Shown one piece after another: positions 57,995 through 64,000 of a stretch of 64,000 bases of DNA (its first letter is position 1; each line of letters starts with the position of its first letter). The stretch is from Planctomycetota bacterium. GTDB lineage: Bacteria; Planctomycetota; UBA1135; UBA2386. The notes beneath the pieces are model-generated. The model did not search any database, was not told the DNA's origin, and was given only the letters and a program-made list of their open reading frames with translations. The stretch is from positions 4,608,001 through 4,672,000 of the forward strand of contig OZ245006.1 of assembly GCA_965223545.1 (NCBI GenBank), in the 5' to 3' direction. Made by a program: the position numbers and the translations under genes.

Positions 57995-60151
57995 TCAGGC
58001 GGTCTTGGCCGTGGCCAGCGGCCGGGTCGGCTGCGGTGCGACCTCCGGCGACTCACCGAGCTCGAAGCGCGGGCGCTCGGCGCGCGCCTTGGCGAGCGTG
58101 CGGTGCATCACCTTGTTGCGCGCCATCTCGACCAGCGAGCGTTTGCCGGTGAGGACGCTGGCCACGCGTCGCACCCAGCTCTTGCCCGGCAGGGAGACCG
58201 TGTCGGCGCGCGGCGGCGCGGGACGTCCTTCGGTGATGCTGCCGCCCGGAAAGACCTTCGGGAAGGCGCGGTAGCCGTAGCGCGGATCGGTCGCCAGCGC
58301 CAGATACCGGTCGCCCCGCTGCAGCATGAGCATGTCGTCGCAGAACTCCTTCAAGATCGCCCGCACCTGGTCGGCGTCGGCTTCGCTCTCGAAGTGGCGG
58401 ACGATGTCGCGCTCACCGCGGATCTTCCAGCAGAACTCGTAGACCTTGCGCTTGACGCCGGTGAGCTTGCGGTGGAACCGCTTGGTGCCCGGGCGCGTAT
58501 CGAGCAGCATCAAGTTGCCGCTGCGGGGCACCGCGATGAAGTGCGCCCGGCCCCACGCTCCCTTCCAGCCCTGCACCAGCTTGCGCAGGCGTTGGTAGGG
58601 CTCGCCGCGTTCCTTCTCGGAGAAGTGGTCGCACTCGAAGAAGAACGCCAGGTTGTTCAGCGCCTCCTCGGCGAAGGGGTAGACGTAGCCGTAGGCCTTG
58701 GACGGGCGGATGCCGGTCAGTCCCCACTCTTCGGGGGACGTGTGGTACGGCGCGAAGCGCTCGAGGTAGAGCACCGAGGTGCCCGACGGCGGCTGCAGGT
58801 GCGCGAGTGCGCGCGCGGTGCGCTCGTGGTCGGCGATCTCGCTGTCGTCCTCGCCCGGGAACCCGTACAGCCAGTTCCACGTGATGCGCACGCCGGACTC
58901 GGTGCAGTTCTTGAGCAGCTGCACGTTCTGCAGCTGCGTGCTGCCCTTGCGCATCAGCTTGAGTGACAGGTCGCTCAGGCTCTCGATGCCCGGCTGGATC
59001 CAACGGATGCCGGCGTCGGCCATCATCCGCACCTGATCGCGCGCCAGGTTGGCCTTGGTCTCCCAGAAGAACTCGGCCTTGGAGCCGCTGGCCAGGGCCG
59101 GCACCAGCGACTTGAAGTAGGCCATGTCGAGGATGTTGTCGGTGAGCTCCATCCGGGTCAGGCCGAACTTCTCGATCTGCGCGGAGATCTCCGCGAGCGC
59201 GCGCTCGGGCTGCTTGCTGCGGAACACCATGCCCTCGCGGTTGAAGGCGCAGAACGTGCAGTGCTGTTTGGCGCCCCACCAGCAGCCGCGCGACGTCTCG
59301 GCCACCAGGCCCGGCACGACCTGCTTGGCCACCTCGAGTCCGTTCAGCTGCTCGAAGTAGTCATCCAGATCGGCGTGCGGTTGCGCGTCGAGGTCGGGGC
59401 CGTGCAGGGGGCGGCTGGGCGGGGTCTCGGTTGCCGCCTTCGCCAAGAAACCGTCGACCCCACTGCCGTCGCCGCCGCTCTTGAGGTTGCGGACCAGCTC
59501 GACGATGGTCTTGTCGCACTCCCCGCGCCCGACGAAATCGATCTCGGGGTAGAGCTTGCGAATCTCGGCGCCCATCTCGGCTTCACAGTTGGCGCCACCC
59601 ATCATGGTCAGCACCTCGGGGGCGGCGCGCTTGACCGCGCGCAGCAGCGTCACCGACGAGCAGTTGGCTTGGAAGGTCGAGCTCATGCCCACCAACCAGG
59701 GGTTGCGCGCCAACATCTCCGGCACGGCGTCTTCGTCGACGAAAGCCCGCGCCTGATCGACCAGTCCGCGCAGGCCGTCGAAGGCGGTGGCGCTCTTGGT
59801 CCAGTGCTTGAACCCTTCCTCGACCTGGGTGCCCGCGATGACCTCGTCGCAGTAGCGGCGCAGGTCGTCGTCAGTCCGATCGTGTCCGATCTGCGAGAAG
59901 ATCAGGTCACCGAGCAGATACGGTCCGGTGCCGCTGAGCCACTCGTACAGCATCGTGCCGATGCGTTGCGCGAAGCGCAGGTTGAGATACAGGACTTCCG
60001 AGTGGAAGCCCGCAGCCAGCAAGTTGGCCTTCAGCTGGCTGACGCCAAGAGCGGGACACCCGAGTCCATGGTACGGGGGTACCACGAGGAGCGCGGTGGA
60101 CTCTCCGTGCGAACTGGTACGCGACTCGACCTCGGAAGGCGCTGTGGTCAT
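57995..60151 (-). CDS. RiPP-maturation-type B12-binding radical SAM protein (rSAM_ocin_1-like)
   Basis: PALGVSQLKA, MGGANCE, ETSRGCWWGAKQHCTFC (Cx7Cx2C), DNILD, ETKANL, IQPGIES, HLQPP. Confidence 0.88.
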   Translation of the reverse strand: MTTAPSEVESRTSSHGESTALLVVPPYHGLGCPALGVSQLKANLLAAGFHSEVLYLNLRFAQRIGTMLYEWLSGTGPYLLGDLIFSQIGHDRTDDDLRRYCDEVIAGTQVEEGFKHWTKSATAFDGLRGLVDQARAFVDEDAVPEMLARNPWLVGMSSTFQANCSSVTLLRAVKRAAPEVLTMMGGANCEAEMGAEIRKLYPEIDFVGRGECDKTIVELVRNLKSGGDGSGVDGFLAKAATETPPSRPLHGPDLDAQPHADLDDYFEQLNGLEVAKQVVPGLVAETSRGCWWGAKQHCTFCAFNREGMVFRSKQPERALAEISAQIEKFGLTRMELTDNILDMAYFKSLVPALASGSKAEFFWETKANLARDQVRMMADAGIRWIQPGIESLSDLSLKLMRKGSTQLQNVQLLKNCTESGVRITWNWLYGFPGEDDSEIADHERTARALAHLQPPSGTSVLYLERFAPYHTSPEEWGLTGIRPSKAYGYVYPFAEEALNNLAFFFECDHFSEKERGEPYQRLRKLVQGWKGAWGRAHFIAVPRSGNLMLLDTRPGTKRFHRKLTGVKRKVYEFCWKIRGERDIVRHFESEADADQVRAILKEFCDDMLMLQRGDRYLALATDPRYGYRAFPKVFPGGSITEGRPAPPRADTVSLPGKSWVRRVASVLTGKRSLVEMARNKVMHRTLAKARAERPRFELGESPEVAPQPTRPLATAKTA

Positions 60152-60453
60152 GGGCAGTGTCTAACTCAGGGGTGAGATGAGGAGCCGCAGCATCGATGCG
60201 GAGGCGCCGTCCCGCGCGGTGCGCAGGGGGCAGTGGCGCCAACACTCTCGCGCGCGGGAGGGTTGTCTGGCGGATCCTACCATGCGGCCGGCGATGCGGC
60301 CTGCAGGGCTCACCGAAGGCTATCCGATTTCGGCGCCCCGGGGGTCGCGCGGCGGCCGATTCCGCCGACCGCTCCTTGCCATCGAGGAATGCGCGATGGC
60401 CTTCCCGGCCGCCGTGGAGAGCACCTCGGCGCCCCCCGGCGGCGCGGCGAACA

Positions 60454-60852
60454 TCAGTGGCTGGGCGAGGTCGCCGTGGTCGCGGCGAGCTTCTCGATCG
60501 CACCCTCGATGTCGCTGGCCATCTCGAAGTAGGGCGTCAGGCGCATCATTTCGAGCATCCGCTGGAACACCGGGAGCAGCCCGGCCAGCGCGAGCTGGCC
60601 GCCGTGTTCGACCACCTGTTCCCGCACGCGGATCAGGAGCTCGACGCCGCATGAGTCCATCACCTCGACTTCGGTCAGGTCGAGCACGATTCCGCTCAGC
60701 CCCTTCGCGGTCGATTGTTGGACCTGGGCGCGGATCAACTCCTTCAGGCTGTCCGCGACGTAGAAGTTGACCGCGCGGTCGAGCACGCGCAGCACGGCGA
60801 GTTGCTTGTCGGGAACCTCTGTGAGGTGGATGCCGCGCGAGTTCGTTGCCAT
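60454..60852 (-). CDS. STAS domain anti-sigma factor antagonist
   Basis: IVLDLTEVEVMDSCGV (phosphoacceptor Ser), GGQLAL, MLEMMRL. Confidence 0.88.
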   Translation of the reverse strand: MATNSRGIHLTEVPDKQLAVLRVLDRAVNFYVADSLKELIRAQVQQSTAKGLSGIVLDLTEVEVMDSCGVELLIRVREQVVEHGGQLALAGLLPVFQRMLEMMRLTPYFEMASDIEGAIEKLAATTATSPSH

Positions 60853-60912
60853 CGGTGCTCTGCCCTAACCTGCCGTAGATGGCCATCGGTTCGCGGTTGC
60901 CCAGAACATGAG

Positions 60913-60956
60913 AAAACTCGAGGCCCGCCGTGCATTTGCGCGGCGGGCCTCGAGTT
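60913..60956 (-). terminator. Rho-independent terminator
   Basis: AACTCGAGGCCCGCCG...CGGCGGGCCTCGAGTT 16-bp stem ending in a T run on the minus strand, just after the 60999 stop. Confidence 0.8.
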
Positions 60957-60998
60957 GGTCCGGGCGTAGGGCGCGGCTACGGCGCGCCGTGGCATCGC

Positions 60999-61904
60999 TC
61001 AGAGCAAGCGGGTCGAAGCGTAGGGGACGCTCCAGTTGGCGAGCGTCGTGCTGACCGGGATGAAGGGCGGCAGCATGGCGTCGATCTTGATCAGGCCGCG
61101 CATCGCGCCGCGGTGGAAGATCAGGTTGCCCGAGCGGCCCCAAGTGGTGGTGGCGTTGATATCGGGCTGGGCGGTGGTCCAGTTGGCGTCCAGCTTCTGC
61201 TCGTTGGCGTAGAAGGAGAAGCTGAGGTTGGCGTACATCAGGAGGCTGATGACGGTGGCGCTGGCGCTGCCGTTGCCGGAGACCGCGGCCTCGCCGTTGA
61301 AGCGGACCTTCGCTTTGCACGGGTCGAAGGTGCCGTCGAGTGCCGCGCGGACGCGGCCGTAGGCGCGGCCGCTGAGCAGGGCGACGCCGGCGCCGACGGG
61401 CACCGTCAGAGTGGGCGTCATGAAGCGGAGGCGGATCGTGCTGCGGCCGCTGAAGCCGGTGCTGAACGAGCTGTTCCACAGCACCGAGTTGCCGACCCGC
61501 AAGTAGACGCTGCCCGAGGAGTAGCAGGAGGTGCCCATGAGCCGGCCGAGGGTGCTCGTCTTGACGGTGCCGACGGCGGCGAGGTTCATGCGGAAGTCGC
61601 CGGCGCGGCCGGAGCTGCCGAGGAAGCGGAGGTCGGCGACGGCGCGGGTGCTGCCACTGGCGGCGAGGGTGGTCTCCCAGTAGGGCGCGGTGACGATCCA
61701 GCCCGAGCCGGAGCTGGGCACGTATCGCGTGCTCTTGCCGGCGGCGATGTAGCCGGTGCCGTAGGTGTAGACGCCGGCGTCGCTGTCGCCGAACGACTTC
61801 GAGTAGGTGCGGGTCAGGGACATGTTCTGGGCGTGGCCGGCGCTGGCCAGGGTCAGCAGGGCGGCGGCGACGGGGGCGAACAGGGCGGCGGTGGTGGTCT
61901 GCAT
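60999..61904 (-). CDS. Secreted beta-rich protein, candidate LLTP beta-sheet (DUF1943-like) subunit
   Basis: Signal peptide (ASAGHA-Q); alternating beta-strand pattern; TYSKSFG, ADLRFLG, SVYLRVG, TVPVG segments. Confidence 0.6.
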   Translation of the reverse strand: MQTTTAALFAPVAAALLTLASAGHAQNMSLTRTYSKSFGDSDAGVYTYGTGYIAAGKSTRYVPSSGSGWIVTAPYWETTLAASGSTRAVADLRFLGSSGRAGDFRMNLAAVGTVKTSTLGRLMGTSCYSSGSVYLRVGNSVLWNSSFSTGFSGRSTIRLRFMTPTLTVPVGAGVALLSGRAYGRVRAALDGTFDPCKAKVRFNGEAAVSGNGSASATVISLLMYANLSFSFYANEQKLDANWTTAQPDINATTTWGRSGNLIFHRGAMRGLIKIDAMLPPFIPVSTTLANWSVPYASTRLL

Positions 61905-62000
61905 CGTTCACTTCCTGGGTTTCGAGCCGGCGTTTGGCGACGTTGCCCGCCGGCACAAGACGGAACGCCGCGCCGCGCGCGATCGACCGGCCGCGCCGCC

Positions 62001-62033
62001 AAAAAAGAGGCGCGACGGCGAGCGCGCCGTCGC
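62001..62033 (-). terminator. Possible terminator or attenuator hairpin
   Basis: GCGACGGCG-N4-CGCCGTCGC stem followed after 5 nt by T6 on the minus strand. Confidence 0.45.
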
Positions 62034-62204
62034 AGGTCCGGTTGACCACCGAATCCGGCGGCGCCGTTCTTGCCGAACGGCGGCGCGGCTCAGCGGTGGT
62101 GACCGCGAGCCGCGCAAGGGGCGCCGAAACCGCGATCGCGCGGTGGCTGCCTCATGAGAGCGCGCGCAGGGCGCGCGCTCTCGTGCAAGAGAATGGCGCG
62201 GACG

Positions 62205-64000
62205 TCAGTCGGCGCGCAGCAACAGCTCGGTCGCCAGGCGGCGCAGCTCTTCCTCGGCGTCGTTGATCGACGCGTGCTGCAGCGCGTTGCGGGCGTGGTC
62301 GTCGAGCACCCGGCCGATGGCCTGGATCGCGGCTTCGCGCACCCGCACGTCCGGGTCCTGTAGCACGATCTCGGCGAGTGCGCTGCGCGCGCGGTCGGTG
62401 CCCAGCTCGGCCAGCGTCTCGGCGGCGCGGCCGCGCACGTTGTGGGACGCGTCACCGCGCGCTGTGGCGATCAGCCGCTGCTCGGCGGAGGCGCCGCGCG
62501 CGCTGCGCATGGCGATCACCGCCGCTTCGCGCAAGCGCTCGTCGGCGTGGTCGAGGTAGGCTTGAGCGTGCGCGGCAGCCTCGGCAGAGCCGGAGTTGCC
62601 CAGGGCGTGCAGCCAGGCGTCGAGGTTGTCGCTGCCCTCGTACTGCTCCTCCAGCGCGACCAATGCGTCCAGCGCGCTGCGGCCGTCGGCCAGCGGCGCG
62701 GTGGCGCGCGGCGCGACCGTGCCCAGCACCATCAGGCCGAGGCGCCCGAGGTCGTCGCCGTCTGCCGCGGTTGCCGAGGCCAGCATGCGTTCCATCGTCG
62801 CCGGGGTCGGCTCTTGCACCTGGGTCAACGCCATCGTCGCGGCGCCGCGCAGGGCGGGCGGCACGTCGCCGTCGTGTTGGATGCGCAGCAGGGCGGCCTG
62901 CGCGCGGTCGGTGCCGGCCGCGCCGAGGGCGGTCAGCAGGGCGACGGCGGAGGACTCGTCCAGCGCACCCGGCCGCAGCCACGCCGCCACCTCGTCGGCC
63001 AGCTCGGGGCGCAGCTCGAGCAGGCGCGCGAGCTTCTCCCAGGCGTCGCGGTAGTCCTCGGTGTCCTCGGCGCCGCTGGCGGCCAGCGCCGCCATGCGGC
63101 CGATCAGATCGCGCAGCTCGACGCCCTCGAGCTCGCGCTGCCAGCTCAGCATCTCGCGCTCTTGCGCCAGGGCGAACGCGGCGTCCTGGTCGCCGCCGAC
63201 CGGCTCCCACGCGGCGTCCCAATCGACGCGCGCCAGAGTCGAGAGCGGCAGCTTGGTGCACTCTTCGAGCCGCACCGAGCCGGTGCAGCGGGCGGCGATG
63301 TCGACGTCGAGCGCGTCGAACGAGACCGTCGTGCGGTCATCGAAGTCGGCGTCGGCGAGCCAGCCCGCGGCCTCGCTGAGGCGCGCGGTCGAACGGCCCT
63401 GCACGGTGATCGTCAGGTCGCCCTGCCCGCGGGTGCGCACGTTGGGGGCGGTGTAGTGTTCGCGTTCGCGGACCAGGGTGCGATCGGCGTCCGCCACCTC
63501 CAGCCAGCGGTACGCCGCCTCGAACTCGCCGGTGTCGTCCTGATCCAGCGCCGTCCAGGTCGGCTGTTGTTCCGCCTCGTGCGGGACGATGAAGCGCAGA
63601 CCGGCGAGCACCGCGCGCACGTGCGCCTTGTGCAGGTAGGTGAAGCGCTGGGGAAACCGGTAGCCGGTGACCTGGCCCTCGGTGTCGATGCGCATCAGGG
63701 TGGGCTGTGCCAGCGCCGCACACAGCTCGTCGACCACCGGCTTCGCGGCGTCCGACGCGGCGATGCCGCGCGCCCCGTGGAGCCCCGGCAGTCGGACGGC
63801 GACCACCGCCTCCTGCTCGCGCCGGTCGAGCACCGTGAGCTGCAGCTGGCCGGCGAGGTGGGCTTGCGAGTTCTGTGCCCGGGCGCCATCGGTCCGGCGC
63901 GCCAACTCGCTGCCCACGGTGAACTCGAGGGCGTAGGAGAGCTGCTGCCCGATCGGTGCGACGTACACGCCCTCGAGCCGCGCGGCGGGGCGGCTCTGCC
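62205..64000 (-). CDS. HEAT-repeat protein with vitellogenin/MTP-like N-terminal lipid transport module (5' end outside window)
   Basis: Frame open to the window edge; QDDTGEFEAAY, LTALGAAGT, LMVLGTV, LHALGNSG, LREAAVIAMR motifs. Confidence 0.7.
   Translation of the reverse strand, partial: QSRPAARLEGVYVAPIGQQLSYALEFTVGSELARRTDGARAQNSQAHLAGQLQLTVLDRREQEAVVAVRLPGLHGARGIAASDAAKPVVDELCAALAQPTLMRIDTEGQVTGYRFPQRFTYLHKAHVRAVLAGLRFIVPHEAEQQPTWTALDQDDTGEFEAAYRWLEVADADRTLVREREHYTAPNVRTRGQGDLTITVQGRSTARLSEAAGWLADADFDDRTTVSFDALDVDIAARCTGSVRLEECTKLPLSTLARVDWDAAWEPVGGDQDAAFALAQEREMLSWQRELEGVELRDLIGRMAALAASGAEDTEDYRDAWEKLARLLELRPELADEVAAWLRPGALDESSAVALLTALGAAGTDRAQAALLRIQHDGDVPPALRGAATMALTQVQEPTPATMERMLASATAADGDDLGRLGLMVLGTVAPRATAPLADGRSALDALVALEEQYEGSDNLDAWLHALGNSGSAEAAAHAQAYLDHADERLREAAVIAMRSARGASAEQRLIATARGDASHNVRGRAAETLAELGTDRARSALAEIVLQDPDVRVREAAIQAIGRVLDDHARNALQHASINDAEEELRRLATELLLRAD

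Follow-up and report, generated by a model that had tools for sequence, protein, structure and literature searches.

Does a bacterium carry, on two neighboring genes, the parts of a large lipid transfer (LLT) protein that form a single chain in MTP? This question is raised by the gene pair P0001 and P0002, which lies at the end of a stretch of 64,000 nucleotides from a Planctomycetota bacterium (contig OZ245006.1 of assembly GCA_965223545.1, positions 4,608,001 to 4,672,000), referred to below as the window. A paper on bee vitellogenin (PMC12214520) describes large lipid transfer proteins (LLTPs) as lipid carriers of animals and connects their emergence with multicellularity. A preliminary description of the window, made from the letters of the DNA, had proposed that the two genes encode a two-subunit secreted lipid-binding complex. 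The computational analysis reported here leads us to favor, with guarded confidence, the reading that the pair is a split, exported, MTP-like heterodimer with a predicted narrow hydrophobic pocket. Coordinates without a contig or locus label are window positions; the window lies in a genome of 8.1 Mb with 70% G+C. The two genes and the domains of the large protein are as follows.

62205..64000, minus strand: large gene P0001, with its ATG start beyond the window edge at 64193; 662 aa
60999-61904, minus strand: partner gene P0002, 301 aa, co-oriented with P0001 and 300 bp downstream of it
63252..63947, minus strand: N-sheet or beta-barrel domain of P0001 (residues 83-314, central helix 186-197), from model secondary structure and structural alignment
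62211..63188, minus strand: helical clamp of P0001 (residues 336-661, net charge -24), from the model, the helical-only profile and Pfam

Within the window the reading frame of P0001 has the limits given in the preliminary description, but the end at the window edge is not the true one: the genome sequence places the start codon at 64193, and the N-terminal hydrophobic segment lies outside the window. The six motifs that had been noticed in the large protein and the four in the small one are all present in the minus strand translations, in the order described. P0001 occurs as a single copy in the genome and is composed of a hydrophobic segment (residues 13-32), a flexible linker, an LLT-type beta-barrel and a helical clamp ending in HEAT-like repeats. 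Using Pfam, HEAT_2 was matched at 6.7e-15 and Vitellogenin_N (PF01347) with 21.1 bits (E 1.3e-4), which is below the gathering cut-off of 24 bits; a precomputed PF01347 match is available for 3 of the 5 first relatives. The family alignment of 144 sequences goes back to 150 listed by a profile search, from which 3 fragments and 5 repeat proteins of great length were dropped and to which two earlier matches were added. Compared with the PDB, the profile of this alignment matched lipovitellin (2.9e-17), MTP (2.4e-12) and apoB (0.0014); designed HEAT-repeat proteins ranked higher, but matched the last repeats only. The first two motifs lie in the stretch aligned to lipovitellin 85-162 which, together with the whole-family match, argues for a likeness beyond chance. 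Profiles restricted to one domain (39 sequences each) gave lipovitellin 85-162 as the best PDB match of the barrel, at a borderline E of 0.051, and lipovitellin (1.4e-8) and MTP (0.0024) for the helical part, where designed HEAT repeats scored higher over the last 45 positions only.

The predicted model of P0001 (pLDDT 91, pTM 0.84) comprises an N-terminal helix, a low-confidence linker, strands in residues 83-314 and helices in residues 336-661. Foldseek with this model returned MTP, lipovitellin, vitellogenin or apoB in all of the top 11 rows (E 4e-16 to 1e-7), and the apoB barrel entry 9bd8 matched at E 1.4e-7. In a wide structural alignment residues 78-653 were placed on lipovitellin 17-619 (Z 19.7, root-mean-square deviation (rmsd) 5.9, 543 residues); designed repeats tied with lipovitellin in Z, covering the helical part only. 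The N-terminal region therefore matches the LLT barrel by Foldseek, structural alignment and barrel-only profile, and both LLT features, a barrel round a central helix and a two-layer helical clamp, are found in model and alignment. Translation, model and structural alignment also agree with the earlier view that the protein stops after the helical domain, with no C- and A-sheets in the same chain. The lipid domain of MTP comprises residues 604-884 and its cavity measures about 2,100 cubic angstroms (PMC6717300). Because of the profile, Foldseek and structural-alignment matches to LLTPs we regard P0001 as a true homologue of the LLT barrel and helical clamp; this homology is shown by computation, and the modelled chain stops where the MTP lipid domain begins (604).

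The small protein had been described as a co-oriented, beta-rich product of 301 aa with an export signal, and this agrees with our results. Residues 1-25 of P0002 resemble a signal peptide (judged without a signal-peptide predictor) and are followed by an all-beta, amphipathic two-sheet domain. Its close relatives are few (7 proteins), and ESM Atlas matches were all under 0.9. One partner, from a genome of the same order, is identical to a protein labelled Planctomycetes bacterium at NCBI, in keeping with a planctomycete host. A profile of 10 genes adjoining other large genes, built without P0002 or its close kin, matched P0002 among 1082 open reading frames (ORFs) with E 1.3e-9, and hhalign of P0002 against 23 members of the partner family gave 98.2% (E 3.5e-14). 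With the profile of these 23 members P0002 scored 52 bits, compared with 5.1 bits for the reversed sequence and <=12.6 bits for 1000 shuffles (980 reported).

The model of P0002 (55 sequences) is all-beta with about 15 predicted strands (pLDDT 85.7, pTM 0.67). With this model only 2 Foldseek matches reached E<=0.001; MTP chains account for both (4.1e-5 and 1.0e-4, TM 0.43-0.45), and the next row was an autotransporter (8e-3, TM 0.20). A wide structural alignment against 48,161 chains ranked MTP 8eoj first (Z 8.1, rmsd 4.8, 203 aligned), with model residues 5-276 on MTP 613-874, and a second structural comparison gave MTP 6i7s with Z 9.0 (rmsd 5.6, 230 aligned, MTP 614-868). All three structure searches place the fold closest to the MTP lipid-binding domain and not to a porin, which had been named as a possible outcome. 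The scores are modest, but the match carries weight because the alignment lands on exactly the domain that P0001 lacks. Judged from the models, the C- and A-sheet fold is present in trans, in the partner, and the link of the partner to LLTPs is a structural one only. Most strands of P0002 alternate between apolar and polar residues, with a face difference above 1.05 in 10 of 14. The net charge is +14 for P0002, -8 for the P0001 barrel and -24 for the helical clamp; across the family, helical domains are net negative in 38 of 39 cases and partners net positive in 39 of 55. P0001 contains four cysteines and P0002 two.

The distribution of both genes was analyzed in a class sample of 201 genomes and a phylum sample of 301 genomes, in which kin are not independent. 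The class sample contains the large gene in at least 34 genomes (a floor from a stricter first look) and the partner in 33, with 32 common to both; in the 33rd partner genome (G112) the large gene adjoins its partner once the locus is extracted. A hand count covers 46 non-self places of the large gene: a partner match in the same orientation adjoins it at 37, 7 are cut by contig ends or ambiguous, and the 2 without a significant match both adjoin an exported ORF of about 300 aa, one at E 0.012. The partner profile was built from 23 of the 37 paired places; among the remaining evaluable places 14 of 16 are paired. In the phylum sample the barrel profile was detected in 35 of 301 genomes and the partner profile in 34. 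Here the pairing count leaves out G000 and G008 and covers 44 barrel places, in genomes absent from partner-profile building. A partner match within 2 kb is present at 33 of them (upstream at 31, downstream at 1 and on the other strand at 1). When the 11 places with none listed were extracted, 6 showed a partner at E<=1e-3 and 1 a weak one, whereas 2 lie at contig ends and 2 have no partner. Conversely, of 41 partner places 34 lie within 3 kb of a barrel, and a large gene is adjacent to 4 of the 7 lone partners. This neighborhood survey, which the preliminary description had proposed, finds both genes together elsewhere, and it is shown by computation that the large gene and the partner gene travel together.

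Tree distances of 32 pairs correlate with rho 0.40 (3 of 2000 permutations), a value from which relatedness was not removed; the nearest neighbor is the same in both trees for 20 of the 32 pairs, and in the four genomes with two pairs, none of the 8 pairs is nearest to the other pair of its own genome. The partner-first order is found in the majority of the relatives, and the large-first order of the window, as in MTP, in a minority. The latter is common to the window and G177, a member of another genus that is the nearest relative for both genes, and it is seen separately in G086, G289, G300, G419 and G465.

Compared with MTP (6i7s, 8eoj), the barrel and clamp of P0001 resemble residues 21-603 and the two-sheet domain of the partner resembles residues 604-884 in fold and size (276 residues, compared with 281 in MTP), and the gene order of the window follows the N-to-C order of MTP. 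In contrast to MTP, the bacterial form is predicted to consist of two separately exported chains, with a hydrophobic N-terminal segment and a linker on the large chain. The partner model has about 15 predicted strands instead of 12 and is without the C-terminal helix (MTP details from the accessible part of PMC6717300), and the identity is 10-14%. MTP has an obligate PDI subunit and conserved disulfides; no PDI-like or thioredoxin-like gene was seen by eye in 20 kb around the pair. Vitellogenin/lipovitellin (1lsh, 9enr) and apoB (9bd1) provide the best sequence-profile match of the large family and a structural match over the whole Vitellogenin_N region, but the bacterial pair is without a large funnel, vWD domain or beta-belt, and the partner fits vitellogenins weakly. 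Relatives of P0001 carry the database label of bacterial 'HEAT repeat domain-containing proteins', and in look-alike clusters of Myxococcota and Pseudomonadota PF01347 is assigned to 12-75% of members. The PF01347 label covers the large chain only, whereas the partner family is without a Pfam family. Using P0002 family patterns, a metagenome scan confirmed 0 of 598 stretches and a scan of named genomes only 2 loci, both already in the locus set; because neither scan added loci, occurrence outside the phylum rests on database labels. By its modelled fold the pair resembles MTP, yet it is not a strict member of the LLTPs, because the sheets sit on another chain and lipid binding is only predicted.

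These comparisons are consistent with the following mechanism. Both proteins would cross the inner membrane by Sec, and P0001 would remain anchored through its N-terminal helix on the flexible linker, unless cleavage of this helix sets it free. The partner, which is basic, could dock into the acidic helical clamp: its first sheet, from about residue 26 to 149, would line the clamp as the C-sheet does in MTP, and the second, long sheet (about 150-301) would extend to the barrel in the manner of the A-sheet. With their apolar faces the two sheets would enclose a narrow pocket, able to take up one or a few lipids or different hydrophobic molecules, and the pair would take cargo from, or hand cargo to, envelope membranes. 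The genome contains one large gene and three partner genes, and the two extra ones might provide the single clamp with further pocket subunits or with alternative ones. The split homology to MTP seems to us highly probable, and a physical complex of P0001 and P0002 likely; that lipid or hydrophobic-ligand binding is the job of the pair we put only a little above an even chance.

Several observations, given here and in the next paragraphs, weigh against the split MTP-like heterodimer. No ORF with a fused clamp and partner was found among 94 large-type and 98 partner-type ORF matches (loci partly redundant), and no lipid-handling gene is among the recurrent neighbors of 29 loci. The apolar face of the long sheet of P0002 is rich in Gly/Ala, unlike the Leu/Ile/Val/Phe lining given for MTP in PMC6717300. 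A domain scan of 20 long partner ORFs detected SH3b, FG-GAP or CARDB domains, which serve wall binding or adhesion, in 6 (SH3b in L091, FG-GAP in L067 and L068, CARDB in L045, L060 and L079). At two of these loci (L067:3990-9107 and L068:3617-9272) a giant FG-GAP partner of 1350-1500 aa is followed by a short, clamp-only large-type gene without barrel. Partner passengers, barrel-less clamps beside giant partners and the multiplicity of partners suggest that a true split LLT homologue, whose chains do bind, might have another job: the large protein would be a tethered chaperone or anchor displaying a variable amphipathic partner, the passenger domains of which act at the cell wall or surface, and no lipid would be carried. 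This explanation also accommodates the Gly/Ala-rich face, the variability of partners, which far exceeds that of the large protein, and the LysM-like start seen by eye in the partner of L093. It fits the 8 barrel matches of G239 with diverse partners (some adjoining kinase genes) and the three partners for one large gene in the genome studied here, of which one has diverged strongly (113 non-synonymous codons compared with P0002). An N-terminal hydrophobic 17-mer above 1.6 in 137 of 139 full-length large homologues (P0001 is just under, with 1.56) would suit an anchor. However, most partners, P0002 included, are bare two-sheet domains with no passenger, similar to the MTP lipid domain in size and shape, and bare cargo would require a function of its own. 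We consider this explanation rather unlikely.

Other objections concern the kinship of P0002 with MTP. Sequence searches with P0002 against Pfam and the PDB gave nothing significant, and in the absence of a sequence-level LLTP match the echo of the sheet region that had been heard in the segments TYSKSF, ADLRFLG, SVYLRVG and TVPVG is not borne out at the sequence level. The structural match to MTP is modest (Z 8-9, 4-11% identity, TM about 0.45), lipovitellin 1lsh is only seventh (Foldseek E 0.027) and 9enr matches at E 0.14, and FhaC (Z 7.8, 101 aligned), OmpU (7.5, 83) and FyuA (7.5, 150) are within 1 Z of MTP over about half of the length. P0002 could thus have no kinship with MTP and be an amphipathic sheet protein of another kind, such as one subunit of a barrel or pore in the outer membrane, escorted by an LLT-like protein, and the MTP match could be a general resemblance among long beta-meanders; outer-membrane barrels and pore-formers do rank just below MTP, at Z 6-7.8. 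Only MTP, however, aligns over the whole length at an rmsd of about 5, whereas membrane barrels reach Z values up to 7.8 on one half or cover the full model with an rmsd of 17-27; an oligomeric barrel is conceivable. Moreover, the aligned range of MTP is exactly the part missing from the neighbor gene, which is unexpected for a generic match, and we judge this explanation to be improbable.

The remaining objections come from the layout of the locus and from the extra partner copies, for which the following features are relevant.

62011..62034, minus strand: terminator-like hairpin with six T, between both genes (pattern match only)
61905..61989, minus strand: 85-bp stretch upstream of P0002, common to all three genomic partner copies (sequence comparison)
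60997..61989, no strand assigned: duplicated block of partner gene and upstream stretch, 97.9% identical to C1:6739494-6740486 and 79.3% to C1:6740755-6741749
60913..60956, minus strand: long hairpin after P0002, inverted repeat 60915-60956 followed by four T, a likely intrinsic terminator

The terminator that had been proposed after the pair corresponds to this last hairpin. The implied single operon fared less well: the genes are co-oriented neighbors, but transcription as one unit is doubtful because a terminator-like hairpin separates them and the small gene has an 85-bp upstream stretch in common with the stand-alone copies. Terminator-like sites are weak as a class (5 in 6 kb, compared with 2.2 +/- 1.6 in shuffles), and a pattern search around both genes found no sigma-70-type promoter match. 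The 85-bp stretch is a candidate promoter or leader of the partner gene, and the inner hairpin together with the duplicated block with its own upstream stretch suggests that the partner is expressible on its own. One public contig, possibly from the same source DNA, covers 60400-64000 with zero differences.

The 993-bp block, which consists of the partner gene and 85 bp upstream, recurs at a distance of 2.07 Mb in tandem with a 62%-identical paralogue, and no large gene is found in 20 kb at this second locus. The twin differs from P0002 in 15 synonymous codons and 1 non-synonymous codon, located in the signal peptide, and for this reason both look maintained. In 4 runs from one study, compared as contigs, the depth doubles over 60997..61989 in three runs of one sample, so the duplication is real; the depth is flat in the fourth run, in which a single contig covers the locus, a weak hint that the duplication is possibly strain-variable. 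The block duplicated without the large gene, its upstream stretch and the hairpin before it could indicate that the adjacency is incidental: P0002, small and mobile or duplicated, would have brought its own promoter and come to lie behind a HEAT-repeat gene to which it has no relation. This reading is most improbable and was rejected, since it is largely refuted by the pairing kept across the class and phylum samples and by G177, where the closest relatives of both genes stand in the same order.

For bacterial LLTP homologues or their pairing with a partner, no paper was found in the open-access literature. Already known are the automatic PF01347 tags on look-alikes of the large chain; the pairing across the Planctomycetota, the MTP-collinear order and the surplus partner genes are added here. 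A wider interpretation, which we offer as tentative and doubt more than we believe, is that the split MTP-like pair may be a two-chain lipid-transfer machine of the bacterial envelope with exchangeable pocket subunits, and that animal MTP, vitellogenin and apoB arose by fusion of such a pair. If this were true, the rarer clamp-then-partner order of the window would be the arrangement that a fusion needs. With a bacterial two-chain form of both clamp and lipid-pocket domain, the LLTP family would gain a prokaryotic branch, and the origin of the family could be tested by phylogeny and structure. Such a form would also serve as a compact model, free of PDI, for lipid loading of the MTP type, suited to expression in laboratory strains, and would point to a so far overlooked system of lipid handling or surface display in roughly one of nine phylum genomes sampled (35/301).

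At the second partner locus the tandem genes (C1:6739496-6741749, L002:7496-9749) are separated by DNA that repeats part of the 5' end of a divergent amidohydrolase-like gene and is, because of this repeat, a trace of tandem duplication. A denitrification-like cluster lies just downstream (L002:106-5539; by eye copper nitrite reductase, cytochrome c, SCO, Rrf2 regulator and NnrS-like). Among the variant relatives (L091, L093, L096, L098 and genome G239), the partner domain is fused to five SH3b domains, to a LysM-like start (by eye) or to long C-terminal extensions. The partner of G104 (L029:3182-4159) is split over two reading frames by a frameshift or an assembly error, and L025 looks similar. 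Long open frames considered as fusion candidates were rejected as passengers or a non-coding upstream frame.

At 29 loci, a survey of about 1.5 kb around the large gene yielded as recurrent neighbors, besides the partner, only an ECF sigma gene and a few others that recur among close kin. The ECF-type sigma gene is present in 11 of the 29 loci (L006, L007, L008, L009, L010, L012, L015, L019, L020, L027 and L029; kin not independent), often with a Ser/Thr kinase (by eye), and a regulatory link between ECF sigma and the large gene is possible. The genome of the window contains 42 ECF-type ORFs in 8.1 Mb, none of them at the P0001-P0002 locus. Upstream of the pair and beyond the window, a divergent operon (L001:10417-19776, plus strand) encodes by eye an exported beta-helix-like protein, a TonB-dependent receptor and MotA/TolQ/ExbB-type proteins; it was not seen beside the loci of relatives. 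Downstream of the pair, both on the minus strand, are two genes whose products we take from their motifs to be a STAS-like anti-sigma antagonist (60454-60852) and a B12-binding radical SAM protein of 718 aa (57995-60151) resembling maturases of ribosomally synthesized and post-translationally modified peptides.

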